From the NCBI GenBank assembly GCA_937920115.1, contig CALGVF010000082.1:9733-73732 (forward strand): DNA of 64,000 nucleotides. The letters run 5' to 3'. Within the stretch, counting starts at the first letter, position 1. Each line of letters starts with the position of its first letter. The DNA comes from an uncultured Clostridia bacterium (GTDB lineage Bacteria > Bacillota > Clostridia > Christensenellales > Borkfalkiaceae). The position numbers and the translations under genes were made by a program. Under the pieces are notes generated by a model. That model was not told the DNA's origin. It searched no databases and saw only the letters and a list, made by a program, of their open reading frames with translations. This document shows, one piece after another, positions 5,352 through 47,903 of the stretch.

Positions 5352-5430
5352 AGGCGGCGAGAGAGGGTTTCCACAACACACAGCATATTCCCCTCGGCTC
5401 AATACGGTTCAATTCCGTAGCCGCCTTCCA
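5352..5430 (+). other. Degenerate tRNA-like element
   Basis: Acceptor pairing AGGCGGC (5352-58) / GCCGCCT (5420-26). T-arm TACGG-TTCAATT-CCGTA (5403-19). Discriminator plus CCA (5427-30). The central 42 nt do not fold into D and anticodon arms. Confidence 0.35.
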
Positions 5431-5452
5431 AAAAAAATTTGGTGAGCGAATT

Positions 5453-7945
5453 ATGGACTTATTTGCATTACAAGAAAAATATAAAAGCGTTCCGAATGAA
5501 CTGAAAATACTTAAGCGTTGGATTTGTTTTAAAGTTGAGGGGAGAGAGGACGGAAAGACAACAAAACGCCCGTATAATGCGTTAAACGGTAAATTTGCAA
5601 GGGTTAATGACGATTTGACATGGAGCAACTTTAATATAGCGTTAAACGGTTGTATTAAATATCATTGTGATGGATTAGGCTTTGTTCTTGGTAACGGTAT
5701 ATTTGGGATCGATCTCGATAATCACGCGGATAAAGACGGAAACATTGCAATGAACGACGAAGAGTTTAAAACCTTTTCCGAGCAGTTTATTTCCGCGCTC
5801 GATTCGTATACCGAATATTCGCAGAGCGGGAAAGGTGTACATATAATCTGCTCGGGGACATTGCCTGAGGGTAGTCGTAGAAAAGGTTGTGTCGAAATGT
5901 ACGATTCGGGACGGTTTTTCGCGTTTACGGGTAACGTTATCCGAAACACTACAATTAATGTTCGAACAGAACAGGTAAAACCTTTATGGGAAAAGTTTGT
6001 TCAATCGGAATATCAAGCAAATCGTCCTGCGATACAGCCTCGTCAGCCGAATCCTAACGCATTAATGTTGTCCGACGACGAAATAATCAAAGCCGCATAT
6101 GCGAGTAAAAACGGCGAAAAGTTTTACGCATATTATCACGACGGCGATATCTCTATGGATAACAACGATCAAAGCGCGGCAGATATGTCGTTCTGCAATC
6201 TTTTGGCGTGGTGGTGCAACTCCGACAAGGCTCAAATGGATAGAATATTCCGTAGTTCGGCTTTAATGCGCGATAAATGGGACCAATACAGAGGAAGTCA
6301 GACTTATGGCGAAATAACGCTTACAAAGGCGATTGCGGACTGCGTTGGCGGATATGCTTGCGACAGATCGTTTGCAAATGGTGACACTAAAGGATTAACA
6401 CCGCAAAGGAATTATACGATACGTAATGAGGTTGCGTCTGCGACTAAAGATAACGGAATGAACCTTAATGCGGACGGCGAGCCTATATTCAGGATTAAAA
6501 AGATTTTCAGACATTACGCATTAACCGATACGGGAAACGCCGAAAGGTTTTATGATTATTTCGGAGATTGCTTTAAGTATAACACGACCGATGAATGTTT
6601 TATGTTTTGGACAGGCAAAACATGGATAAAAGACAACGGAGATATTATTATTCGTAAGTATGCGGATAAAATGATTTCGATATTGCAATCGGAAGAGGAT
6701 GAGGTCGCAGGTCAGATAGAAGAAGCCAAAAGACAAGGCGAAAACGAAAAAGCGGCACAATACACTGTATTACTTGCCGAAATGATAAAAAATAAGAAGA
6801 AAATCTCAAACAAATCGGGAAAGGATTCAATGCTTTCCGAATTGCGACACATAAAGAAAATGGCTGTCGAGAATTCGATTTTTGACCAAGACCTTTATTT
6901 GCTTAATACGGATTCGGGCATTGTGGATTTACGGACAGGCGAAATAAAGCCGTTCGATAAAGAATTCTATATGTCGAAAAATACGAATACGGAAGTTTCG
7001 TTTGAAGAACCTACGGAATGGCTTAAATTCATTCGTAGCATATTCGATAGCGGTAATTTTATTGAAACAAATGAGATTGTAGATTCTATTCAGACGTTTT
7101 TAGGCTATTCATTGTCAGGCTCGACAAAAGAGCAGGTAATGTTTATGCTTTACGGCGACGGCTCAAACGGTAAATCGACTTTAACAGAGCAAATCGCAAA
7201 AATTTTAGGCGATTATGCGACAAGTATTCCGAGTAGCGTTTTAATGTCGCAAAAGAACGGGAATTCGGTTGCGGTTGAATATTCTTTGGCAAGACTTCGC
7301 GGCGTAAGATTTGTTGCTACCGGCGAAACGGACGAGGGCGCGAAGTTTGCAGAATCGCAAGTCAAGATCATAACGGGTAGCGATAAAATACAGGCTCAGT
7401 TCAAATACGGTCAGCCGTTTACTTATTATCCACACTATAAGATATGGATGTCGACAAATAACTTGCCGAACATAAAGGGTACGGATAACGGTATTTGGCG
7501 TAGATTAGAAACTGTTCCGTTTTTGCGGACTTTTACCGATAAAGAAAAAGACAAATTTTTGCCCGAAAAACTCGAAAAGGAAAGCGCGAAGATTCTCGGT
7601 TGGTGTATACAAGGCTTTATGAAATACTGGCAATTAGGCAACTTTATTCGTTGTCCGAGATTGCAGGAACTTAAAGACAGATATAAATATAAAATGGATA
7701 TGGTCGAGCAGTTCCTTGTCAATGAATGTACGTATGCGACAAACGCAAAAGTCGAGTGCAGAGAATTATATTCGCATTTCAAATCGTGGTTTAAGAATAA
7801 CACAGAATACGAAATGCGCGAAAGTATGTTCCGCGACAGACTTACCAAAAAAGGCATTAAGATTCAGTCGATGTCGAACGGTGTTCGTGTGTACGTCGGT
7901 ATAAGACTTAACGGCGCAAACATAGGGGGACACGACATATGGTAA
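5453..7945 (+). CDS. Bifunctional primase-polymerase / D5-P4-type replicative helicase
   Basis: 830 aa. N-terminal prim-pol-like region (GFVLGNGIFGIDLDNH). C-terminal SF3 NTPase with Walker A GDGSNGKST and Walker B-like RFVATGETDE. Confidence 0.88.
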   Translation: MDLFALQEKYKSVPNELKILKRWICFKVEGREDGKTTKRPYNALNGKFARVNDDLTWSNFNIALNGCIKYHCDGLGFVLGNGIFGIDLDNHADKDGNIAMNDEEFKTFSEQFISALDSYTEYSQSGKGVHIICSGTLPEGSRRKGCVEMYDSGRFFAFTGNVIRNTTINVRTEQVKPLWEKFVQSEYQANRPAIQPRQPNPNALMLSDDEIIKAAYASKNGEKFYAYYHDGDISMDNNDQSAADMSFCNLLAWWCNSDKAQMDRIFRSSALMRDKWDQYRGSQTYGEITLTKAIADCVGGYACDRSFANGDTKGLTPQRNYTIRNEVASATKDNGMNLNADGEPIFRIKKIFRHYALTDTGNAERFYDYFGDCFKYNTTDECFMFWTGKTWIKDNGDIIIRKYADKMISILQSEEDEVAGQIEEAKRQGENEKAAQYTVLLAEMIKNKKKISNKSGKDSMLSELRHIKKMAVENSIFDQDLYLLNTDSGIVDLRTGEIKPFDKEFYMSKNTNTEVSFEEPTEWLKFIRSIFDSGNFIETNEIVDSIQTFLGYSLSGSTKEQVMFMLYGDGSNGKSTLTEQIAKILGDYATSIPSSVLMSQKNGNSVAVEYSLARLRGVRFVATGETDEGAKFAESQVKIITGSDKIQAQFKYGQPFTYYPHYKIWMSTNNLPNIKGTDNGIWRRLETVPFLRTFTDKEKDKFLPEKLEKESAKILGWCIQGFMKYWQLGNFIRCPRLQELKDRYKYKMDMVEQFLVNECTYATNAKVECRELYSHFKSWFKNNTEYEMRESMFRDRLTKKGIKIQSMSNGVRVYVGIRLNGANIGGHDIW

Positions 7946-8349: not shown

Positions 8350-9737
8350 AAATAATAGATCCGACACAAGAGATTTTGGATTGGGCAGAGAAATGGCTTA
8401 CGCTGACAAATCCCGAATATACTCAGTTGAAACTCTTGGGGAAAGACAATCTTATAAAATGGCGCAGAGTCCCCGAAAAACTTTGCTTATACGCAAAACG
8501 CGGAAACAGATTAATATTGCCGTTCGGATTGCTAAAGGCTGTGTGGAAATTTTTTTACAGAAACGCTTTTAACGCAACGTTCAATAATGCCGGCGAAATC
8601 AGCATTGCAGATTGCAAGCCGACATTATCGTTATACAACTATCAAGAAAAGGCTGTAAACGCAATGTTAAAGGCAAAAGGTGGGGTTTTAGTGGCTCCCT
8701 GTGGATCCGGAAAGAGTCTGATGGGTATAGAAATCATTCGTCGCATAGGTAAAAAGGCGTTATGGTTGTGTTCTACGGGCGATTTATTGCGACAAGCAAA
8801 AGCGGATATGGAAGAACTTTATCCGTCAATTAAAATAGGATTAACCACAGAGGGGAAACTTGAAATCGGCGAGGATGTAACAATTTCGACCGTTCAGACT
8901 TTGAGTAAAATCGATCCGTCGTATTATAAAAACGAGTTTGACGTTATTATCTGCGACGAGTGCGCTCACGTCTTTTCTGTTCCGTCAAAACTGCAGATGT
9001 TTGGAAAGGTTCTGACAAGTATTCCCGCGCGATTCAAATTCGGATTAACCGCTACTCCGACAAGAAGCGGGGGAGCGGATCTTATCCGAGCAATGTACGC
9101 ATATTTGGGTTGCGATAACAACGGCGAGTTCGCTCCCGCATATAAAGTCCCGAAAGAAGAAGTTAAAACTATTACGGCAGTACAAGAGAAAATCGAACTG
9201 TATAGCGGTTATGACGAAGTATCTCAAATGATGCAGATTTACGACACCTCGGGAATGATTGTCTATAACGACCTTATTAACGCTCTGTCGGAAGATAATG
9301 ACAGAACCGATAAGATTATCGAGAATATAATAAAATGCGACGCAGAGGGCAGAAAACAGGTCGTATTGACGCTTCGGGTAGAGCATTGCAAAATCATTGC
9401 GGAGAAACTACTCGAACGCGGAATAAATGCGGTTGTTTGTACCGGTGCAGTTACAGCGAAAAAAAGAAAAGAGATTTTGACGTGCAAGACGGATTGGAAA
9501 GTTTTGGTTGCGACTTATTCGTTACTGAAAGAGGGGGTTTCGATAAAGGCTCTCGATACTCTGCACCTTGCAACGCCGATAAAAGAAAAGGCTATGATCG
9601 TTCAGTCTGTGGGACGAATCGAAAGATATATGGATAATAAAAAGCAACCTATCGTATATGATTATGTAGATATGGATATTCCGTATTGCGTAAGAGCATA
9701 CGATGTAAGACGCAGAGCGTTAAAATCAAGATTCTAA
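8322..9737 (+). CDS. Superfamily-2 DEAD/DEAH-box helicase
   Basis: Motif I APCGSGKS, motif II DECAH, motif III GLTATP, motif VI QSVGRIER. Confidence 0.85.
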   Translation: METNIGSEIEIIDPTQEILDWAEKWLTLTNPEYTQLKLLGKDNLIKWRRVPEKLCLYAKRGNRLILPFGLLKAVWKFFYRNAFNATFNNAGEISIADCKPTLSLYNYQEKAVNAMLKAKGGVLVAPCGSGKSLMGIEIIRRIGKKALWLCSTGDLLRQAKADMEELYPSIKIGLTTEGKLEIGEDVTISTVQTLSKIDPSYYKNEFDVIICDECAHVFSVPSKLQMFGKVLTSIPARFKFGLTATPTRSGGADLIRAMYAYLGCDNNGEFAPAYKVPKEEVKTITAVQEKIELYSGYDEVSQMMQIYDTSGMIVYNDLINALSEDNDRTDKIIENIIKCDAEGRKQVVLTLRVEHCKIIAEKLLERGINAVVCTGAVTAKKRKEILTCKTDWKVLVATYSLLKEGVSIKALDTLHLATPIKEKAMIVQSVGRIERYMDNKKQPIVYDYVDMDIPYCVRAYDVRRRALKSRF

Positions 9738-13552: not shown

Positions 13553-13609
13553 AAACATATAAAAACACAACTAAATGTATTGATTTTTACATATTTTAAA
13601 GATAAATTT

Positions 13610-14767
13610 ATGAAAACATATAAAACCGAAATAGAATTAAATCCATTACAGCAAGAAAAATTTTTGCGTACAATAGGTGTTTGTCGGTTTGTATATAATT
13701 TATTTTTACAAAAGAATAAAGAGTTATATACTAAAAATAAAGATACTAATTTACCTAAATATATAAATAATTTTGAATTCAGTAAATGGTTAAATAACGA
13801 ATTTATACCTGATAATCCTGAATATCAATGGATAAAAGAAGTATCAAGTAAAGCAGTACGACATGCTATAGATAACGCAAACAAAGCGTTCGCAAAATTC
13901 TTTGCACATAAAAGTAATTTTCCGCGATTTAAAAAGAAAAACAAAAACGATTGTAGTATGTATTTTGTTAAAACAGACAAAAACACTAAAATCAAATGCG
14001 AAAGGCATAGAATAAAAATACCTACGCTTGGTTGGTGTAAATTAAAAGAATTTGGTTATATACCAACTGATAAAACAATAACAAGCGGAACAATTATTAA
14101 ATATGCCGGAAGATTTTATATAAGTGTTTTAACAGATGAACCTATCAATATAAAATCTAATAATTCGCAAGACGGAATCGGGATTGACTTGGGCGTAAAG
14201 GATTTTGCGATACTGAGTGATGATACTAAATACAAAACACTTAAACAAACTAAATTAAATAAAAGGCTAAAACGAGAGCAGAAAGCAATCTCGAAAAAGT
14301 ATGAAACAAAAAAGAAAAATAAAAAGGAGGTTGCTACTTGTAAAAATATAGAAAAACAAATACTACGAGTACAAAAAATATATCGGCGAATAGCAAATAC
14401 TCGAAACGATTATCAAAATAAAATTATAAGCGAAATAATAAAACGAGAACCAAGTTTTATTACAATCGAAGATTTAAACGTTCGCGGTATGTTAAAGAAT
14501 AGGCATTTATCAAAAGCAATAGCAAATCAAGGATTTAATCAATTTGTTTCTAAACTTCAACACAAATGTGTTTTGAATGGAATAGAGTTAAGGCAAGTTG
14601 ATAGATTTTATCCGAGTTCTAAAATTTGCAGTGATTGCGGAAAGATAAAACAGGATTTAAAATTAAGCGATAGAATTTATATCTGTGAGTGCGGAAACAT
14701 AATAGATAGAGATTTGAACGCGGCAATAAATCTTAAGTATGCCAAAGAATATAAAGTAATCGCATAA
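13610..14767 (+). CDS. tnpB: TnpB RNA-guided endonuclease (IS605 OrfB family)
   Basis: The N-terminus KTYKTEIELNPLQQEKFLRTIGVCRFVYN is typical. RuvC D (GIDLGVKD), E (ITIEDLN) and D (IDRDLNAAINL) are present, plus the zinc ribbon CSDCG...CECG. Confidence 0.9.
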   Translation: MKTYKTEIELNPLQQEKFLRTIGVCRFVYNLFLQKNKELYTKNKDTNLPKYINNFEFSKWLNNEFIPDNPEYQWIKEVSSKAVRHAIDNANKAFAKFFAHKSNFPRFKKKNKNDCSMYFVKTDKNTKIKCERHRIKIPTLGWCKLKEFGYIPTDKTITSGTIIKYAGRFYISVLTDEPINIKSNNSQDGIGIDLGVKDFAILSDDTKYKTLKQTKLNKRLKREQKAISKKYETKKKNKKEVATCKNIEKQILRVQKIYRRIANTRNDYQNKIISEIIKREPSFITIEDLNVRGMLKNRHLSKAIANQGFNQFVSKLQHKCVLNGIELRQVDRFYPSSKICSDCGKIKQDLKLSDRIYICECGNIIDRDLNAAINLKYAKEYKVIA

Positions 14768-14905
14768 TCAAGCGACTTTATATATGTACTCGTGGCTAAC
14801 GAGGAATTAACGACTGTGGACTGCTATACAAACCAAAGTAGGTTTACGAAATGGGGCAGGATGAAGCAGTAATGGGAATATCGCGAGATACCCGAATTCT
14901 AAAGT
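14690..14905 (+). ncRNA. Candidate omega (re)RNA scaffold of TnpB; ends approximate
   Basis: Overlaps and follows the tnpB 3' end. Helices: CTCGT/ACGAG 14789-93/14799-803, AAACC/GGTTT 14830-34/14841-45, ACTGC/GCAGT 14820-24/14866-70. Confidence 0.45.
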
Positions 14906-39719: not shown

Positions 39720-40544
39720 ATGCAGAATGAAATCAAAGAAGAGGTAAAGAAACCCGAATCCGAAGCAGACAAAGAACTTAGCGATTTGTTTGTGAAAGAC
39801 GAGGAGGTGACCGCTACCGAAAACAATGCAGATACCCTTACTGCTGGGCAGGAAACCGACGGAACGAAAGAGGACATCGAAGTCAAAACCGAAGAGCCGT
39901 CCGTCGATATGTCGGCTGAAGAAAAAAGCGGCGCGGAAAATTTCGTAAAAACCGAAAACTTATCGCAAAAAGACACAGCGCAGACTGATGCGCCGGAAGT
40001 CGAAAAAGCGATATTCACGCAGTCACAGGTCAATAAATTGGCAGGCAAGGCAAGAGAAGAAGGCAGAGCGTCGGCTTTGAAAGAATTGTTTGCGAGATAC
40101 GGTGTGGCTGACGAGAACGAATTGAACGGAATATTCGGCAAAGGACAAACGTATGACGATCTGAACGAAGAATATGCCGCGCAGGGCAATTCGGTCAGAG
40201 AAGTCAGAGCCGAAAACGCTTTACTCAGAACGAACATAGTTCCCGAACGTTGGGACGACGTTAAAGCGATTCTTGGCACGAAAGGTCTTGAGGTTTCTCA
40301 GGAAAACATTACCGCAGAATTGGCGACGCATCCGGAATGGCGAGGAGCGAGTGTGGCAGTTGAATCGGAAAAGAAACCGTTCAGCCCGGAGTTGGGCGAG
40401 CAACTGAAGAACACGCCGACGCAGAAACCGGACGCGACGGAAAGCAAGATGTCGCCGCTCAGACGGTTAGGCACTGAAAACGGCGAAAACGAATCTCCCG
40501 AAGTTTCCGAAGAGAAGAAAATTCTTTCGATGTTCGGGCTGTAA
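39720..40544 (+). CDS. Scaffolding protein (DUF4355-like)
   Basis: 274 aa, acidic and helical. FTQSQVNKLAGKAREEGR is typical of phage scaffolds. Lies immediately upstream of the capsid gene. Strong RBS aaggagagagg. Confidence 0.65.
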   Translation: MQNEIKEEVKKPESEADKELSDLFVKDEEVTATENNADTLTAGQETDGTKEDIEVKTEEPSVDMSAEEKSGAENFVKTENLSQKDTAQTDAPEVEKAIFTQSQVNKLAGKAREEGRASALKELFARYGVADENELNGIFGKGQTYDDLNEEYAAQGNSVREVRAENALLRTNIVPERWDDVKAILGTKGLEVSQENITAELATHPEWRGASVAVESEKKPFSPELGEQLKNTPTQKPDATESKMSPLRRLGTENGENESPEVSEEKKILSMFGL

Positions 40545-40625: not shown

Positions 40626-41042
40626 ATGACTATCGATGAGGCTAAGAAAGCATTTGACGAAATGAGAGCGCAGGGCGCGGACGATAATGCGATACTCGGA
40701 ACGCTGTACAGAATGTTCCAAGACGACAAAATCGACGTAGAGCAACTCGGCGCGCTCGTAAACGTACTCGGATATGAACTTACGGACGAATTCAAGCAGA
40801 TGACGCCCGAAGATCAAAAGACGAAAGGTTGGGAAGCCGATGACGAAAGCGAAAAAGCGGAAGGCGTGACCGACGAAGAAGTCGAAAAAGCGAAAGAGTA
40901 CGGCGACGATCCTGACGAAAGGAGCGGTAACGCATCCGACGAAAAATCGGACGAAACGGATGCCGAATCCGATAAAAAGGACGAGGAAGAATCCGACGAG
41001 GAAGCGACTAAAAAGGCGAGGAAAATATTCGGTTTGGACTAA
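40626..41042 (+). CDS. Highly acidic small head-module protein
   Basis: 138 aa with RBS aaaggag. Asp/Glu-rich C-terminal half ending in KIFGLD. Confidence 0.55.
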   Translation: MTIDEAKKAFDEMRAQGADDNAILGTLYRMFQDDKIDVEQLGALVNVLGYELTDEFKQMTPEDQKTKGWEADDESEKAEGVTDEEVEKAKEYGDDPDERSGNASDEKSDETDAESDKKDEEESDEEATKKARKIFGLD

Positions 41043-41069: not shown

Positions 41070-42281
41070 ATGGCTGGTAACAATATAGAACTTATTACCA
41101 AGTATAGCACCAAAGCGTTCGACGAAGTTTACAAACAGGAATCGGTTACGGCGGCTTTGGACGTCCCCAACGCGTTTATGGAATTCACGGGTGCAAAGAC
41201 CGTTAAAATCAGAAAATTCCAGACGGGCGGACTTAACAGTTATTCGAGAAACAACAACGCGGGCGGTTACGGCGACACGAGAATTGATCAGCCTTCGGGC
41301 GATTATTATGGTTCTGCGGGATTCGGTTATAAGCAGACGAGCGCGAAAGTCGAATGGGAAGAAAGAACCCTTAAGATGGACAGAGCGGCGGCTATTCCGA
41401 TTGAGTATTTCGATAACGAGGAAGCGGGCGGCGACGTAGTATCGCTTACGGCATCCGAATTTATGAGAACCGTTATGGTCCCCGAAAACGACGCGTACAC
41501 GCTTTCGACGATTGCGGCGAATGCGGGTAAGGTTGTATCCGAGGCAATCGCAGACAATAAAGCCCTTGCGGCATTAAACAGCGCGTTCCTGTATTTCGAG
41601 GAAAACGAAGTTCCCGCAAACGATCAGGTTATCTTCGCGTCGCCGGCATTCATGAAGAAACTTCGTGAAACGACCGAAATGACGAGATTCCTCGGCGAGG
41701 ATGTAAAAGACAGAAAAGTCAATTACAAAATCACGAATTACGAAGGTAGAGATATTATCACGGTATCTCCGCAGAGGCTTCATACGGGCTTCAAGGCTTA
41801 CGAAGGCGGTTATGGATGGGCAAGCGGTTCTGCGGCTATCAACTTCCTTGCGGTAGCGAAATCCGCAGTCGTACACGTTAAAAAATTCGAGCAGTTGAAA
41901 ATCGTAAGCGGCGACATGAACCTTGCCGGTAACGGATTCGACGGTTACACGATTTATGCACGTATGTATTACGATGTGTTTGTACTCGACAACAAGAAAT
42001 ACGGTATTTACGCGAGCATTTCGGCGACTGCTGAAACCGCAGACGTCCCTATGGTAAAACTTGAAATCGAAACGGACACCGCGCATAAGATTACCAAGAT
42101 TACCACTACTCCTCCGAACACGCTTTGCTTTGTAGCGACGGGAACTAAGTCCGGTACTTCCTTGACTTCGCCTGTTCTTGCAAAAGTTGGCGATACTGTT
42201 GCTCAGGATGCTAAGTATTACGCAATTACTTCCGATAAGACCATTATCAGTAACGAAGTAAGCCCCAATCCTAAGGGTTAA
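41070..42281 (+). CDS. Major capsid protein with C-terminal Ig-like extension
   Basis: 403 aa, follows the scaffold, RBS taggag, terminator follows. The fold was not verifiable by eye. Confidence 0.7.
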   Translation: MAGNNIELITKYSTKAFDEVYKQESVTAALDVPNAFMEFTGAKTVKIRKFQTGGLNSYSRNNNAGGYGDTRIDQPSGDYYGSAGFGYKQTSAKVEWEERTLKMDRAAAIPIEYFDNEEAGGDVVSLTASEFMRTVMVPENDAYTLSTIAANAGKVVSEAIADNKALAALNSAFLYFEENEVPANDQVIFASPAFMKKLRETTEMTRFLGEDVKDRKVNYKITNYEGRDIITVSPQRLHTGFKAYEGGYGWASGSAAINFLAVAKSAVVHVKKFEQLKIVSGDMNLAGNGFDGYTIYARMYYDVFVLDNKKYGIYASISATAETADVPMVKLEIETDTAHKITKITTTPPNTLCFVATGTKSGTSLTSPVLAKVGDTVAQDAKYYAITSDKTIISNEVSPNPKG

Positions 42282-42419: not shown

Positions 42420-43040
42420 GGAAATGGATTTTCGCATACATTATTCCGTTTCCCATTCCCCCTTACTCGCGCCGTCGCGTTCTTGATTTACTGATTGCAA
42501 GTTTTTTGCCCTTTGCTTAAATTTTTCTTGCGATACATTCGTTTATAACAGTAATTCTCCATTATTTAAAACCTTTCTGACGCGGCGGCGTGACGATATG
42601 CTGTATATGCTCGGAACAACGGGCGATACGGCACCGGCAGGCAGTTAAAGGGTTCTGCCTTTATTCGAGTTCAAAATTGCGTAGGGGAACTCGGAAAACA
42701 AAACCCTTTTTACGGAAGATTACTCAATCGGCAAAGAGAGGTCCTAAATGGGCGAATAGGGTCGGCACCTATATCTTCCGCCAAAGGTGTGTAGTTCCAC
42801 CTGATGTTACTCGGCTAAAATCGGGTACGGTACGGCTTTGGCTGTTCGTCTTGCTCCGTTAAGGCAGACAGAACGGGTTTTGAAAAGTTTTCCTCGGCAG
42901 AGCAGAGCGTAATGCCGACTTGCGGCGCGCAATAAAACAGAAATGCAAGTTGTCATTGGTTGGCTATTGTTGGTGTGGAGTAATTTCCCACACAAACGAT
43001 CGTGAATCCTCGGTTAAGGGTTGCAACCGAAAAACTTTTA
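42420..43040 (+). ncRNA. Large structured non-coding RNA candidate (ROOL/GOLLD-like context); ends approximate
   Basis: No credible ORF. GC-richer than the flanks, with at least 8 hand-pairable helices. Has its own promoter and a tRNA directly downstream. Confidence 0.5.
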
Positions 43041-43044
43041 TCAT

Positions 43045-43121
43045 CGCGGAATAGAGAAACCCGGAATCTCGCATGGCTCATAACCATGAAATTGCTGGTT
43101 CAAATCCGGCTTCCGCAACCA
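43045..43121 (+). tRNA. tRNA-Met (anticodon CAT) with initiator-like features; encoded CCA
   Basis: Full cloverleaf. Acceptor CGCGGAA/TTCCGCA (C1xA72 mismatch). D arm GAGA-AACCCGGAA-TCTC (A11:U24). Anticodon arm CATGG-CTCATAA-CCATG. T arm GCTGG-TTCAAAT-CCGGC. ACCA end. Confidence 0.85.
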
Positions 43122-43255: not shown

Positions 43256-43290
43256 GATAATGAATAAAAATATTTTCAGGCGGTGTGGAT

Positions 43291-44112
43291 ATGGCAGACA
43301 CGAAAAAGCCAAACGTTGGCGAGGCTATATTAGGAAAAAACAAACAAGCGATCGGATCGTATCAGGAAGCCCCGGGCGGCGGAACGCCTTTGAAAGCGGG
43401 CGAGAAAGCACCGTCGAAAGAATGGGTTGCGGCGAATCGCAAAATGCAACCTCGAGATGACGATGGAAAGTTTACGTATAACGCGGCGAACGCGAAGCCT
43501 TTGGAATACGGACCGTCGAGAGGAAAGACAGTGCCGCCTTTTTTGCGTGGCGTTAAACTGACATATGTTGAAAAATCCGACGTAATTATGATCGAAGAGG
43601 GCAAAAGAGTCCTTGCGGGTATCGATATGAGCGTTGAGGAATTAATAAACAATTACAGGAATTATTCCGAACAGGAAGGCGGGTTCAAAAATCTTACGGG
43701 AGAAACAAAAGGCAAAACCGGTGCATACTCACAGAAAGAAAAAGCCGCAAAAGAAATAGGTTATGAGGGTCTGTTAAAGGCTCTTACGATTCAGGATATT
43801 ACCGAGGGATTTAAAGAGAATAAACAAGCCGGCAAATTGATCGGGGAATTTAAATATGTTAAAAAGGATGAAAATAAGCCCGAATCTAAGCAAGAAGTTG
43901 CGCCCGAAGCCCCGAAATCCGGCGTTACGAGCGAAGAAAAAGAACTCGCAAGTACAGATCCTGTTAAACTTTTTGCTACGAGCGATAACGCAAAGGCATT
44001 AAGACAGAAAGCCGAAGAAAAGGGCTTGAAATTATCTGGTAAAGCGGTAGCGAAAGCGATTGCCGATGGATATACGTGGGACGATTTGAATAAAGTTGTT
44101 GACGAGGCGTAA
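43291..44112 (+). CDS. Head-module protein, candidate internal/ejected protein
   Basis: 273 aa from the ATG at 43291. Lys/Glu-rich. DDDGKFTYN resembles the N-terminal HDKEGKFT motif of the next protein. Confidence 0.5.
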   Translation: MADTKKPNVGEAILGKNKQAIGSYQEAPGGGTPLKAGEKAPSKEWVAANRKMQPRDDDGKFTYNAANAKPLEYGPSRGKTVPPFLRGVKLTYVEKSDVIMIEEGKRVLAGIDMSVEELINNYRNYSEQEGGFKNLTGETKGKTGAYSQKEKAAKEIGYEGLLKALTIQDITEGFKENKQAGKLIGEFKYVKKDENKPESKQEVAPEAPKSGVTSEEKELASTDPVKLFATSDNAKALRQKAEEKGLKLSGKAVAKAIADGYTWDDLNKVVDEA

Positions 44113-44114
44113 TT

Positions 44115-45563
44115 ATGGTTACGAAATCAGACAACACAAAAGGTAATCCTTATCACGATAAAGAGGGGAAGTTTACAAAAAAAGAGGGTGCTTCTGCGGG
44201 TGGTGCGTCTATTGAATCTGAAAGCAGTGTTTCTACAAAGAAACTATCGTTGTCCGATATAGTAATTACACCGCAGGAAGTCGGGAAATTAAATCTTTTT
44301 TCTTCTGAAGATGACGATGCTGATTTTTGGGATAAGGTAGATACATATTCCGAAACAAAAACTGATTCTGCGAAAGAGGATTTGAAAACGTCTGAGAAAA
44401 CAGAACAGACAACGATGTCTGCAAATCCCGATGTTGTAACGGTTATTAATGGTCTTGATTCTAAGACTGTTTATGATACTGTATTAAAAGATTCGACATT
44501 GGATCCCGATAAAATTAAGAATGCATCGGAATCCGAATTAAAAGAACTTTTGCAAGCGCAGTCGGTTCTTGCCGAAAAGAAAAACGATAAAACGCTTGAA
44601 GAAGCAAATAATAAATACTTTTATAATTTATGGCAATATCCTGTAAAGCCGTCAGATTATCTGGATAAAAAGGATAAAATTCAGGCTAAAAAGGATTATT
44701 TCCTTTTCGATTATAAAGGTTCTGATAAACAAGAAAAACTTGCCTATCTTGATTCTTTTGTGGAATCGGGAGAAAAATACGCAAAAGCAAAAGAGATATA
44801 CGATTCCAAATATAAATCTGCGATTGAGATTGTAGATAAATTTGGGAACGGAATATACAGTTTTGAGCGTAAAGAGTCTGCAATATATATTGGTGCAAAG
44901 AATTATCCTGTCTTTAACGAGATAGCCGAAAGTAAGAAGATTTTCGGACCAAATTCCGAAACGGTGATAACAGCGTTAAAAAATTCAAATCCTACTGCAT
45001 TAAACGCGGTGATTGGATATACGGGTAGTTATTCAAGCATCAACGAGCCTTTAAGAGGTGTAACTTATTTCGGCAATAAAACAAGCAGAGAAGAGTTTAT
45101 TAAAAACGTTGAGGGAATGACTGAAGCCATAGAATTATCCACATACGATTTTGATTATTGGGTTCAGCGCGGGACGCATAGCGTAGTTGACGAAGAGAAC
45201 GGAGTGGATATAAACTCGAGCATGACGAGTGCCGAATTAAATGGCTTAGTCGGGAAAGAATTCGTACAGCGTTCGTTTTTCTCTGCGGGGGCGGCTAAAA
45301 ACACCGGGATGCCGACTCGTCCGATAATACTGAATGTTTATTGTCCGAAAGGCACAAAGGGTTTGTATGTAGAATCAATTTCGCAGTTTGCGGGCGAAAA
45401 TGAAATGATTCTCCAAAGGGGATATACGTACAAGATAACAAAAGCAGAAAAGGGTTCAAACGGAAGAATCTTCGTAGATTGCGAAGTTGTATTAGGCTCT
45501 GATAAAGATAAATATACTCACGAGCAACTTGTGGATATAGCAAATAAATACATAAAGGAGTAA
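44115..45563 (+). CDS. Protein with C-terminal ADP-ribosyltransferase (R-S-E, exoenzyme-type) domain
   Basis: N-terminal GNPYHDKEGKFT motif. ART motifs: YTGSYSSINEPLRG (Arg), FFSAG (Ser region), GENEMILQRG (ExE). Confidence 0.7.
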   Translation: MVTKSDNTKGNPYHDKEGKFTKKEGASAGGASIESESSVSTKKLSLSDIVITPQEVGKLNLFSSEDDDADFWDKVDTYSETKTDSAKEDLKTSEKTEQTTMSANPDVVTVINGLDSKTVYDTVLKDSTLDPDKIKNASESELKELLQAQSVLAEKKNDKTLEEANNKYFYNLWQYPVKPSDYLDKKDKIQAKKDYFLFDYKGSDKQEKLAYLDSFVESGEKYAKAKEIYDSKYKSAIEIVDKFGNGIYSFERKESAIYIGAKNYPVFNEIAESKKIFGPNSETVITALKNSNPTALNAVIGYTGSYSSINEPLRGVTYFGNKTSREEFIKNVEGMTEAIELSTYDFDYWVQRGTHSVVDEENGVDINSSMTSAELNGLVGKEFVQRSFFSAGAAKNTGMPTRPIILNVYCPKGTKGLYVESISQFAGENEMILQRGYTYKITKAEKGSNGRIFVDCEVVLGSDKDKYTHEQLVDIANKYIKE

Positions 45564-45794: not shown

Positions 45795-46565
45795 ATGTTA
45801 GGTGCGGTAATAGGTGACGTTGTTGGCTCGCGTTATGAGTTTAATAACATTAAAACTAAAGATTTTGAATTGTTTGGAAAGGGCTGTTATGCAACGGACG
45901 ATACGGTTATGACCTGCGCCGTTGCGGAAGTGCTGATAAATAAAAAACAAAACGACAAAGATTATATCGTCGATACTTTTAAAAAGTGGGGCAGGAGATA
46001 TCCCCACGCGGGATATGGCGGTCGCTTTGGATGTTGGGTATTAGGTAATGAGCGCGAGCCGTATAACAGTTACGGAAACGGCGCGGCTATGCGAGTTTCG
46101 GCGGTTGGTTGGATTGCTAAATCCGAAAAAGAAGTGAAAGATTTATCGCGGGAAGTTACGGAAGTTACTCATAATCATCCCGAGGGAATAAAGGGTGCTG
46201 AAGTTGTCGCAATGTGTATTTATTACGCAAAGCAAGGCAAAGATAAAGCGTTTATAAGGGCATATGTTGAGAAATGTTATAATCTTGATTTTAATTATGA
46301 GGAATTGAGAAAAACATATACTCACGCAGAGGAGATTTGCCAAAACACCGTTCCGCAAGCGATTTTTTGTTTTTTGATATCGGATAGTTTTGAAGATTGT
46401 TTAAGGACTACTATTTCAATCGGTGGTGATTGTGATACTACAGCCGCCATCAGTTGTGCGATTGCCGAAGCCTATTATGGTAGTTGCGGATGTTGTGAAA
46501 AAGAAGTTCTTAATTATTTGACTCCCGATATGAAGAATATATTAAAAAAAGTAAAAACGAGGTAA
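45795..46565 (+). CDS. ADP-ribosylglycohydrolase (ARH/DraG family)
   Basis: GAVIGDVVGSRYEF, TDDTVMT, YGNGAAMRVSAVG, THNHPEGIKGA and GGDCDTTAAISCAIAEAYYG match the family signature. Confidence 0.85.
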   Translation: MLGAVIGDVVGSRYEFNNIKTKDFELFGKGCYATDDTVMTCAVAEVLINKKQNDKDYIVDTFKKWGRRYPHAGYGGRFGCWVLGNEREPYNSYGNGAAMRVSAVGWIAKSEKEVKDLSREVTEVTHNHPEGIKGAEVVAMCIYYAKQGKDKAFIRAYVEKCYNLDFNYEELRKTYTHAEEICQNTVPQAIFCFLISDSFEDCLRTTISIGGDCDTTAAISCAIAEAYYGSCGCCEKEVLNYLTPDMKNILKKVKTR

Positions 46566-46567
46566 TT

Positions 46568-46711
46568 ATGGATAGCGGAAATAACATAGAATTAACCACA
46601 AAACAAATCACGGGCAAGAAGAAAATTGATAAAGTTTTCAAGAAAAAGCCTGTCGTAAAAGAATTAAGTCAGTCCGAAATCAATAAAATGTTTGGAATTA
46701 AGGAGAAATAA
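46568..46711 (+). CDS. Small basic protein (47 aa) ending in KMFGIKEK, tentative
   Basis: ATG 2 nt after the upstream stop. Below the track cutoff. Confidence 0.4.
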   Translation: MDSGNNIELTTKQITGKKKIDKVFKKKPVVKELSQSEINKMFGIKEK

Positions 46712-46715
46712 AAAT

Positions 46716-47039
46716 ATGAAAAAGCAGGAAATGTTGGACTATATCGATAAACTTATCGAGGACGAAATCGAAGCGATTGACGGGTATCATAAAGGCATTG
46801 AAAAAATGCAGGATTCTCCGCGTATAGTCGACTTGTTCGGCAGAATTTATAACGACGAAACAAGACATTTAACTGATTTGCAGGATCTTAAGAAAGCCGT
46901 TGAACAGCATGAAGAAGTTATGCAGTCTATCGAAATGCAGAGAATGTTCGGACTCAAAGATTGCGGACCTGTCTGCGTGTATGGACCGCAGGGCGATGGA
47001 ATAGTTATTACCGACGAAGATAAAGAAAAGAAGGAATAA
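46716..47039 (+). CDS. Encapsulated-ferritin-like (EncFtn-type half-ferritin) protein
   Basis: 107 aa from the ATG at 46716 (RBS aaggag). EIEAIDGY (Glu, then Tyr at +7) and DETRH (ExxH) have spacing within 1 residue of the EncFtn ferroxidase ligands. Confidence 0.6.
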   Translation: MKKQEMLDYIDKLIEDEIEAIDGYHKGIEKMQDSPRIVDLFGRIYNDETRHLTDLQDLKKAVEQHEEVMQSIEMQRMFGLKDCGPVCVYGPQGDGIVITDEDKEKKE

Positions 47040-47042
47040 GAT

Positions 47043-47903
47043 ATGGCGTTTATCAATAACAAGAAATTTGCAGAGATACGTAACGCGGCAAAAAACGGCG
47101 ATGAAAAGGCATTGAAAGTATTACAGGCAATGCGTAAAATGCAACCGCAAGCCGATATCGACAGACTTGTCGAAGATTATTATGCTATACCTGCTCCCGC
47201 CGTTGAAGAGACTCCCGAAACGCCCGCTGTAACCGATGATTTGAGTCTTGACGATGTAAGTGTTGTCAATTCGGTGATTTCGTCCGATATAGCCGATTCT
47301 GACGGCGACGTTACGACTATTACGTATAATCTCGACGATATCACAAAAGATATGGACGGGCTTATCGACGAGGATGAAATCGAGGATATGTCGTTTTCGG
47401 ATTTCCTTGCTGATAAGAAAAAGAATATGACGCGGGCGAGAAAGAACGCGGATTATTTCAAAATGTATGATAACGACAGCAGAAGTAAGTACGCGACGGA
47501 CGCGGTTGCAAAATACAAAGCGAAATTCGGCAACCTTGAGCGTGATATCGACAGACGCAACAAAGACACGATGACCGCTTTGGGAATGTATGAGCAGAGT
47601 GTGGGTGACGAACTCGACGATGAGGTCGAACTCAGCGCGGACAATGCGGATAAAGCGTATTCGGATCTGATAGACAATTCGGGCGCGATGCACTCGTTTG
47701 GCAGGTATTGGGACGAAGAGGATAAAGCAAACGTTATTACGGAACTTAAGACTCTTATTAGTAAATACGGAAAAAAGAACGTACTTGCGGCGATAAATAC
47801 TTTGAAAAGCGACAACGAGAATTACAAGAGTTATATGCACAACAAGATAGACACCGAGGTTGGGAAATACTCTAAAAATCTCGAAAATTTGCTTGGCAAG
47901 TAA
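47043..47903 (+). CDS. Acidic head-module protein, function unknown
   Basis: 286 aa with RBS aaggaa. Asp-rich. Confidence 0.55.
   Translation: MAFINNKKFAEIRNAAKNGDEKALKVLQAMRKMQPQADIDRLVEDYYAIPAPAVEETPETPAVTDDLSLDDVSVVNSVISSDIADSDGDVTTITYNLDDITKDMDGLIDEDEIEDMSFSDFLADKKKNMTRARKNADYFKMYDNDSRSKYATDAVAKYKAKFGNLERDIDRRNKDTMTALGMYEQSVGDELDDEVELSADNADKAYSDLIDNSGAMHSFGRYWDEEDKANVITELKTLISKYGKKNVLAAINTLKSDNENYKSYMHNKIDTEVGKYSKNLENLLGK

Follow-up and report, generated by a model that had tools for sequence, protein, structure and literature searches.

Does a tailed phage encode, among the genes for its head, a relative of the encapsulated ferritins (EncFtn) that encapsulins hold as cargo? This question is raised by a gene at 46716..47039 (+) of the window, by which we mean the whole stretch of 64,000 nucleotides (nt) analyzed here, taken from contig CALGVF010000082.1 of an uncultured Clostridia bacterium (assembly GCA_937920115.1). 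The gene encodes a protein of 107 amino acids (aa), hereafter the target, which a preliminary description had read as an EncFtn-like half-ferritin within a phage head module. We examined whether the target is ferritin-like, and SPECIFICALLY EncFtn-like. Our analysis established remote homology to EncFtn, correspondence of the metal ligands, the fold class, linkage to the head module, and a motif shared with scaffolding proteins. For the whole chain of the proposal, namely a dimeric EncFtn-type half-ferritin that is docked in the procapsid by a scaffold-type peptide and oxidizes or sequesters Fe(II), we estimate a probability of about 0.5.

The target gene runs from the ATG at 46716 to a stop codon at 47037-47039, and the Shine-Dalgarno sequence AAGGAG (46700..46705, +) was read directly 10 nt 5' of the ATG. 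Translation could also start at the TTG at 46692, but the gene would then overlap the one upstream, and M-K/T-K opens every homolog; therefore, the ATG was taken as the start. The operon that holds the target is compact and lies on one strand, with gaps of 4 nt both to the stop of a preceding 47-aa open reading frame (ORF) and to the next gene. Its peptide reads LIEDEIEAIDGYHKGIEKMQDSPRIVDLFGRIYNDETRHLTDL, as had been quoted earlier. The helix-1 ligand block, E17-I-E19-A20-I-D-G-Y24 (46764..46787, +), places E17, E19 and Y24 on EncFtn Glu32, Glu34 and Tyr39, and the helix-2 segment E48-T-R-H51 (46857..46868, +) places E48 and H51 on Glu62 and His65. In EncFtn, Glu32, Glu62 and His65, with Tyr39 nearby, are the residues of the ferroxidase center (Rhodospirillum rubrum numbering, PMC11202242). 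The tyrosine thus stands at +7 from E17, and the two residues of the E48-x-x-H51 motif at +24 and +27 from the tyrosine; the ORF length and these spacings, as given in the preliminary description, were exact on re-reading. Its statement of the EncFtn ligands and their context ('EELEAVDWY...DEEKEH') was confirmed by the review cited above and by the 5da5 alignment. The spacing from Tyr to Glu is 24 in the target and 23 in EncFtn because the target loop is one residue longer, and so agrees within one residue, as had been claimed.

The assignment to EncFtn was supported by several profile comparisons. Among the 18,950 models of NCBIfam, EncB_fam (NF058679, E 7.4e-5, 22.7 bits) ranked first for the target and ferrit_encaps (TIGR04535, E 1.5e-3, 18.5 bits) ranked second, and both matches span residues 1-66 in register. 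The Pfam matches of the target alone were sub-threshold: DUF2383 (E 1.2e-3) and the C-terminal helix pairs of Ferritin (7.5e-3) and Rubrerythrin (0.06). The PDB sequence search with the target alone likewise gave sub-threshold matches to designed di-iron bundles and to helices C-D of bacterioferritin. A word-index search found close relatives only, and an exhaustive hidden Markov model (HMM) search of 1.84 billion representatives recovered 90 proteins, most of them 55-140 aa long with the signature LI.DE.EAI.GY...(H)I..EE.EH. Homologous proteins are cited here by P-numbers (such as P0011, P0024 and P0046) and phage loci by L-numbers (such as L001, L002 and L063). Members of this wider phage family match TIGR04535 at up to 5.7e-14, and two relatives, P0024 (33.6 bits) and P0041 (27.4 bits), pass the gathering score (GA) of 27 of the Pfam EncFtn-like family PF22277. 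In the PDB, P0024 best matches NE0167 (3k6c, E 1.8e-5), followed by R. rubrum EncFtn (5da5, E 4.2e-5), with which it aligns without gaps so that E12/Y19/E42/H45 come to lie on E32/Y39/E62/H65.

Comparison between alignments connected the target to EncFtn stepwise. Three alignments were used: A1, the clade of the window protein; A2, a mixed subfamily; and A4, the core phage family. The program hhalign joined A1 to A4 with 98.9% probability (E 1e-17) and A4 to EncFtn fragments with 95% (E 4e-8), and in the alignment of A1 with the EncFtn fragments all four ligands are in register, with one extra loop residue. When the PDB was searched with a profile, NE0167, EncC, EncB and EncFtn came out on top among natural single-domain proteins; the same search with A2 was swamped by designed bundles and coronavirus spike heptad repeats and thus uninformative. 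Residues L13, E17, A20, Y24, E48, H51 and L55 are invariant across 37 relatives, a set chosen among motif carriers. These results make homology of the target to EncFtn very probable, as a remote and consistent relationship traced partly through intermediates, and not as membership by curated thresholds. The closest natural relatives are thus EncFtn, EncB and EncC by NCBIfam, PDB profile and hhalign, in agreement with the single helix-hairpin half-ferritin type first proposed.

Annotation from better-known phages was of no help. Megablast of 12 kb around the target against 50,697 GenBank phages gave no match, nor did tblastn of the target and P0024 against the same set; no cultured relative was at hand from which annotation could be transferred. 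No PHROGs match of the target had an E-value below 0.1, and ten family members gave a single weak match, to a family of unknown function. The GTDB genomes scanned with profile A1 contained no relative and thus pointed to no host.

The predicted fold is that of a half-ferritin. AlphaFold2, run on an alignment of 24 sequences, modeled the target with a predicted local distance difference test (pLDDT) score of 86 and with helices at residues 3-30, 35-63 and 65-77; the C-terminal 30 aa, including the Cys region, are of low confidence. The monomer is thus predicted as two long helices plus a short extra one, not as a four-helix bundle, and it presents E...ExxH on two consecutive antiparallel helices, a feature of the ferritin-like superfamily. 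EncFtn has the same layout: after two long helices and one short helix comes a disordered tail, which bears the targeting peptide (PMC11202242). A Foldseek search of the PDB with the target model ranked EncFtn 5n5e, EncC, EncB (7s8t, 7s5c), 5da5 and bacterioferritin at the top. No E-value against the PDB or BFVD was below 0.07, as expected for a helical hairpin, and we treat these rankings of a predicted model as compatible with the assignment only. Some of the top BFVD matches are metagenomic phage proteins automatically named 'Ferritin-like protein', 'Bacterioferritin' or 'four-helix bundle model', which indicates that annotation pipelines had already flagged the fold, without any study.

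The pattern E...Y...ExxH could have arisen by chance in an unrelated helical or coiled-coil protein, as the many designed helical bundles and coiled coils among the PDB profile matches and the lack of significance of the Foldseek matches might suggest. This explanation was rejected and is extremely improbable, because the EncFtn models rank first and second in NCBIfam and match in register, the ligand columns are invariant, and hhalign links the target at 98.9% to a family that passes the Pfam EncFtn-like model.

A second line of evidence, unseen by the earlier reader, came from a short motif. The pattern [LIMV]-F-G-[LIMV] closes three window proteins: an acidic head scaffolding protein of 274 aa ending ...SMFGL (39720..40544, +; BLASTP 2e-22 to the PHROG 2303 scaffold of L034), an acidic, second scaffold-like protein of 138 aa ending ...RKIFGLD (40626..41042, +), directly upstream of the major capsid protein (MCP) gene, and the 47-aa ORF ending ...INKMFGIKEK (46568..46711, +), whose stop precedes the target ATG. 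Counterparts of this ORF, of 51 aa and ending ...DKLFGVKEK, occur in L001 and L009. The motif lies within the last 12 residues of 3/108 window genes, where 0.16 were expected, and none of 2000 shuffles reached three. All three genes are in the head module, the two longer ones directly upstream of the MCP. Scaffold-like proteins encoded ahead of the MCP have the same ending in L001, L002, L010, L023, L034, L039 and L063, and those of L010, L023, L034 and L039 match PHROG 2303, 'head scaffolding protein', with E down to 2.8e-8. In the target it stands at M77-L80, within R76-M-F78-G79-L80 (46941..46955, +), straight after helix 3, where it is a candidate capsid-docking peptide. P0011, the syntenic ortholog of the target in L063/L064, is 79 aa long, retains the four ligands and has the C-terminus ...DPMRVFGI exactly. 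The targeting consensus of encapsulin ferritin cargo is L(F)-X1(G/T/S)-V(I)-X2X3-L(I) (PMC11202242), and R-M-F-G-L (residues 76-80) fits its first half; this is a likeness only, and the motif is not C-terminal in the target. We infer from these sequences that the FG motif may dock both the scaffolds and the target on the inner face of the MCP. The motif provides independent, circumstantial support for the cargo idea, and we lean toward an association of the target with the procapsid.

On this basis, the following mechanism can be proposed. The target would be a divergent EncFtn-type half-ferritin, consisting of a helix-loop-helix and a short third helix. As in EncFtn and the designed DF1 proteins, on which this part of the proposal is modeled, two antiparallel copies would together form a four-helix bundle. 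Each chain would contribute Glu17, Glu48 and His51, with Tyr24 nearby, to a symmetric di-iron center of the ferroxidase type at the dimer interface; we consider a di-metal site in such a dimer rather likely. While the head is being assembled, R-M-F-G-L would probably dock the protein to the procapsid's inner face, as the C-terminal targeting peptide does for encapsulin cargo. Inside the head, or on leaving it, the protein might oxidize or sequester Fe(II) and consume O2 or H2O2 next to the DNA, and the adjacent Cys pair may be a redox or metal partner. A physiological ferroxidase activity is putative, and we advance it only tentatively.

Several observations weigh against this proposal. The target scores far under the curated cut-offs, with 22.7 bits against 90 for NF058679 and 18.5 against 125 for TIGR04535, and the Pfam search gave no PF22277 match for the target itself. 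Thus, the profile check suggested in the preliminary description upheld the EncFtn assignment through the top-ranked models and through relatives that pass PF22277, but left the target itself below every curated cut-off. The direct hhalign comparison of A1 with the EncFtn fragments reached only 17% (E 1.4e-3), and the best Foldseek E-value in the PDB was 0.81, which is not significant. EncFtn forms metal-dependent dimers, five of which build a D5 decamer. A tandem fusion of two target copies, used as a stand-in for the dimer, was modeled by AlphaFold2 at low confidence, with pLDDT 60.7 and a predicted template-modeling (pTM) score of 0.36, and its Foldseek matches were meaningless. The window MCP has no relatives among PDB sequences or in Pfam, and there is therefore no specific sequence link between this MCP and encapsulins. 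The FG motif is internal in the target, where 27 more residues follow, and it is absent from the 56-aa members of the family and from those with an N-terminal extension. A head filled with DNA leaves little room for iron mineral. Finally, the ligands are not kept throughout the target's own subfamily, and a gene for a ligand-less member, P0046, occupies the same slot in a syntenic structural module.

The last point was examined in the narrow subfamily of the target. Its proteins are about 95-110 aa long and are recognized by an M-T/K-K start, the DSPR loop, an E-N-H triplet that follows helix 2, an F/Y-G motif, the sequence DG[IL]V and a tail of acidic residues. All four ligands are kept in 13/32 members, at 95% to about 28% identity with the window protein, and the full set is missing in the other 19, most of which retain 0-1 of the four (P0016 and P0019 retain two, P0013 three). 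The preliminary description had named a lack of ligand conservation in homologs as a refutation of its proposal, and this applies in part: the ligands are invariant in the 37 motif-carrying relatives, but not in these 19 of the 32 members of the syntenic subfamily. The synteny of P0046 is close. The genes that follow it encode proteins of 279, 108, 317, 383, 150, 123, 109, 370, 179 and 1482 aa, and those that follow the target in the window 286, 118, 340, 348, 182, 125, 119, 276, 191 and 1445 aa. Since P0046 holds this slot without the ligands, the role that keeps the gene in place does not need a di-iron site. The conserved role of the gene in this lineage is thus probably structural, and iron chemistry would be an extra, retained in the clade of the window, where the Cys pair co-occurs.

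These observations lead to an alternative in which the target is purely structural, an auxiliary scaffolding or internal head protein whose ferritin-derived hairpin docks through the FG motif and the DGIV/acidic tail, and whose E/Y/E/H residues are vestigial or only bridge two chains through metal for assembly, without catalysis. The features conserved across the whole subfamily are not the ligands but I14, the DSPR loop (D33-S-P-R36; 46812..46823, +), L55, E63-N-H65, F/Y78, DG[IL]V (D94-G-I-V97 in the target, followed by an acidic/lysine tail; 46995..47036, +) and the acidic tail, and they include motifs kept in ligand-less members. The FG motif is common to scaffolding proteins, EncFtn assembly is itself iron-dependent (PMC11202242), and small helix-loop-helix scaffolds are known, for example in phi29 (preprint 10.1101/2025.06.18.659913). 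In contrast, in that part of the subfamily to which the window protein belongs, the four ligands and A20 are invariant over the identity range given above, and they remain so across the whole of the wider phage family. The ligands also behave as a unit, tending to be retained or lost jointly, as a working site would be, and the Cys pair tracks them. We therefore consider the purely structural alternative rather doubtful. As a separate observation, the E-N-H/Y triplet at the start of helix 3 (columns E63-Q/N64-H65) and the DSPR loop, kept even in ligand-less members, could form a second metal site or a contact surface.

The Cys pair of the target, C83-G-P-V-C87 (46962..46976, +), co-occurs with the intact ligand set in the subfamily. 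At least two Cys residues within a few residues after the FG motif were found in 11/13 ligand-complete and 2/19 ligand-deficient members (Fisher p = 3.9e-5, not corrected for phylogeny). The spacing varies across the subfamily (CxxxC, CCxC, CxC, CC), yet the pair persists. Together with the weak Pfam Rubrerythrin matches, this pattern would fit a miniature rubrerythrin, in which a di-iron center of the dimer receives electrons from an inter-subunit Fe(Cys)4-like center (C83 and C87 from each chain) and performs peroxidase or oxidase chemistry. We regard such a protein as quite improbable, because the Cys region is modeled at low confidence, no rubredoxin-like CxxC...CxxC knuckle pair exists within one chain, and the association is incomplete: P0095, P0096 and P0011 have the ligands without the Cys pair, and P0007 and P0089 the reverse. 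The association of Cys and ligands may also reflect shared ancestry only.

EncFtn-like genes also occur in other phages. The pattern DExEA[IV]xGY led to 50 confirmed IMG/VR loci with such genes; members of the family are frequent in phage contigs, where they mostly lie within head modules. Three forms of the domain are found: alone (56 aa), with an N-terminal extension, and embedded in proteins of 200-985 aa. Among 31 upstream neighbors, five match PHROG 422, two PHROG 264 and two PHROG 267, all major head protein families; a further two match a minor head protein family, two a portal family (phrog_213 and phrog_1497, one each) and two an adaptor family. The five PHROG 422 neighbors are homologous to the window MCP (E 1e-29 to 3e-53); in each case the EncFtn-like gene follows immediately, after a gap of 62-111 nt. 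The order in L010 is terminase, portal, MuF-like protein, scaffold, 61-aa ORF, MCP, EncFtn-like protein (56 aa) and connectors. In L012, a 626-aa protein encoded directly after the MCP holds the EncFtn-like domain, and in a fusion protein of L035 it follows a DUF2213 domain.

These loci bear on another alternative, in which the target would be a ferritin-like protein that is soluble and accessory (auxiliary metabolic), acting on iron or oxidative stress in the infected cell's cytoplasm and never part of the head, its place in the late operon being incidental. Phages do carry full-length ferritin-like accessory genes of the Dps type (PMC6669764), the neighboring ADP-ribosyltransferase (ART) and ADP-ribosylglycohydrolase (ARH) genes of the window are variable, moron-like inserts, and no docking peptide is evident in the smallest family members, of 56 aa. 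However, the target, unlike ART and ARH, has kept its position in every relative examined (L001, L002 and L063), the MCP linkage recurs in the five further loci with an MCP homologous to that of the window, the scaffold-type motif is present and is terminal in P0011, and the domain is fused to large proteins within head modules. A purely cytoplasmic role is therefore improbable, and we favor the half-ferritin docked in the procapsid.

Two side observations concern these other loci. The large proteins that combine the EncFtn-like domain with DUF2213 (PF09979, 1e-41) or DUF4314 (PF14192) are encoded at L035 4209-7163, L037 4011-6266 and L042 3765-5981, and a literature search found no function established for either domain. 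In L002, the phage of P0046, the capsid gene seems interrupted (5402-7466): a 146-aa ORF whose beginning resembles that of the L063 MCP comes first, next a gene for an HNH/NUMOD4 endonuclease and last a 288-aa ORF, and this interruption may be an insertion of the intron or intein type.

The location in a real phage head module, as first described, was confirmed by the gene order of scaffold, MCP, target and tail. The window represents a tailed phage, with a primase (5453), a helicase (8322), a large terminase (TerL, 10204) and a portal (30713). Its structural genes are ordered as scaffold, 138-aa protein, MCP (41070..42281, +; PHROG 422, E 8e-55), ART, ARH, 47-aa ORF, target and then tail genes, and the downstream part of the module includes tape-measure-like and tail-fiber-like genes. 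Two variable inserts lie between the MCP and the target, ART (44115..45563, +; PF03496, 1e-25) and ARH (45795..46565, +; PF03747, 4e-38). L001 carries both genes as well, L063 lacks both, and no Pfam match for either was obtained in L002. Together they may be an effector that is packaged and the antidote or regulator that goes with it.

The gene downstream of the target (47043..47903, +) encodes a 286-aa protein and begins 4 nt after the target stop. The N-terminus of this protein (47043-47150, MAFINNKKFAEIRNAAKNGDEKALKVL...) resembles an extension, MKYISDMKKLAKIQEMAKGGDEQAKDFL..., found on EncFtn-like domains (BLASTP E 4e-4). Extensions of the MKYISDMKKLAKIQEMAKGGDEQAKDFL type occur on the EncFtn-like proteins of L034, L039, L046 and L047, whose genes follow homologous MCPs. 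This likeness in sequence hints at a gene fusion or fission that linked the two proteins. A degenerate EncFtn domain hidden in the 286-aa protein was considered and rejected, as hhalign gave 0.1% and the likeness is limited to the N-terminal ~35 residues.

Other features of the window were noted in passing. The motif D-x-x-G-[KR]-F-[TV] recurs near the N-termini of proteins, as RDDDGKFTYNAANAKP, NPYHDKEGKFTKKEG, RDELGRFTYNSANAKP and NPYHSKKDGRFVSKGEEG; the sites are in the window genes at 43285-44112 (aa ~55-65) and 44115-45563 (aa 10-25), in L063 at 5523-6137 and in L002 at 8427-9563, and the motif may mark internal head proteins for packaging or processing. The gap of ~1 kb between the MCP and a 275-aa gene holds a tRNA-Met (CAT) at 43045-43121 (+), inside the structural operon, and a 90-aa ORF with a GTG start (42590-42862) of odd composition that is probably no gene. 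Far upstream, a transposase gene (13580-14767, +; PHROG 506, E 4e-103) is followed 46 nt on by a RAGATH-18 RNA (14813-14872, +; 60 bits, gathering score 44.9), and together they look like an insertion element with an associated RNA inside the phage genome.

The preliminary description had been aware of no earlier report, and our full-text literature searches also found nothing on phage-encoded EncFtn and no published description. A 2024 review of EncFtn mentions no phage-encoded EncFtn (PMC11202242), and a large survey of encapsulins discarded phage genomes as false positives (PMC8346489). A 2025 preprint speculates that phage scaffolds are related to encapsulin cargo and that procapsids might carry enzymes (10.1101/2025.06.18.659913).

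The phage family described here is homologous to the best-known encapsulin cargo and offers a concrete object for studying the origin of encapsulin cargo proteins and of their loading peptides. Encapsulins are thought to be domesticated phage capsids of the HK97 type. The family is linked genetically to major capsid genes, in the five further loci with the MCP of the window type and with other MCP families, and in the lineage of the window the EncFtn-like protein bears the terminal motif of the scaffold itself. If the target proves to be both packaged and active, it would be the first known case of an iron- or redox-active enzyme within a phage head, and its motif would be a natural peptide tag with which proteins could be loaded into phage capsids. 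If the target is instead purely structural, a ferritin-like enzyme fold would have been recruited as a capsid assembly factor, with ligand-kept and ligand-lost states in sister phages. A broader scenario, which we consider unlikely, treats the procapsid as a natural encapsulin-like compartment loaded with a catalytically competent EncFtn-type half-ferritin, possibly a mini-rubrerythrin that employs its Cys pair, by the C-terminal F-G-hydrophobic peptide that would also dock the scaffolds. Such a system would be ancestral or parallel to the EncFtn-encapsulin system, and encapsulin cargo loading would descend from viral scaffold docking.

The target can be compared with several known systems. 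The four-helix ferritin-like proteins (bacterioferritin/ferritin PF00210, rubrerythrin PF02915 and DUF2383/PA2169) share the E...ExxH helix pair, and the target weakly matches their C-D pair. Unlike them, it has one helix pair per chain and none of the features of a heme site, a rubredoxin domain or a 24-mer cage, and any di-metal site must therefore form between chains. Compared with rubrerythrin in particular, the target lacks the C-terminal CxxC...CxxC domain and has one Cys pair per chain, and the Pfam Rubrerythrin match (E 0.062) is sub-threshold. The DF1 ('Due Ferri') dimers and 4EH2 bundles, which gave the top raw PDB sequence scores, are minimal E/ExxH helix-loop-helix units that dimerize into a di-metal bundle. 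Since they were designed on natural di-iron sites, their likeness to the target is convergent by design and has no evolutionary meaning. The phage ferritin-like proteins of the Dps type, from Lactobacillus phages (PMC6669764), are likewise products of ferritin superfamily genes in phages, but they are full four-helix proteins whose genes lie in the DNA-metabolism region, whereas the target is a half-ferritin encoded in the head module.

The scaffolding proteins (PHROG 2303 type, and phi29 gp7 with its helix-loop-helix) resemble the target in being small, helical, acidic, MCP-adjacent and provided with [LIMV]FG[LIMV]. In contrast, the target shows no detectable scaffold homology outside the motif (no PHROG match at E<0.1), has a ferritin-type ligand set, and is encoded after the MCP, not before it. 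In phage T4, Alt and the internal proteins are packaged in the capsid by means of capsid-targeting sequences. The concept would be the same for the target, a short peptide directing an enzyme into the prohead, and an ART gene lies two genes upstream of it. The T4 targeting sequence is N-terminal and is removed by the prohead protease; unlike in T4, no protease or cleavage site was identified in the present analysis of the target.

The closest parallel is EncFtn itself, the Flp cargo of Family 1 encapsulins (PF22277, TIGR04535, NF058679; 5da5, 5n5f, 5n5e, 3k6c, 7s5c, 7s8t). The two differ in that the partner shell of the target is a true tailed-phage capsid accompanied by TerL, portal, scaffold and tail genes, with no encapsulin, and in that the target gene is downstream, not upstream, of the shell gene. 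The target also scores far under the family cut-offs, has the extra Cys pair and the DGIV/acidic tail, and has many orthologs without the ligands. In contrast, both are half-ferritins of ~100 aa with two long helices, one short helix and a flexible C-terminal region, and both carry Glu/Tyr/Glu-x-x-His in register, with one more loop residue in the target. Furthermore, each has a short hydrophobic-Gly-hydrophobic peptide beyond the helical core, and each is encoded beside the gene for a shell protein of the HK97 type.

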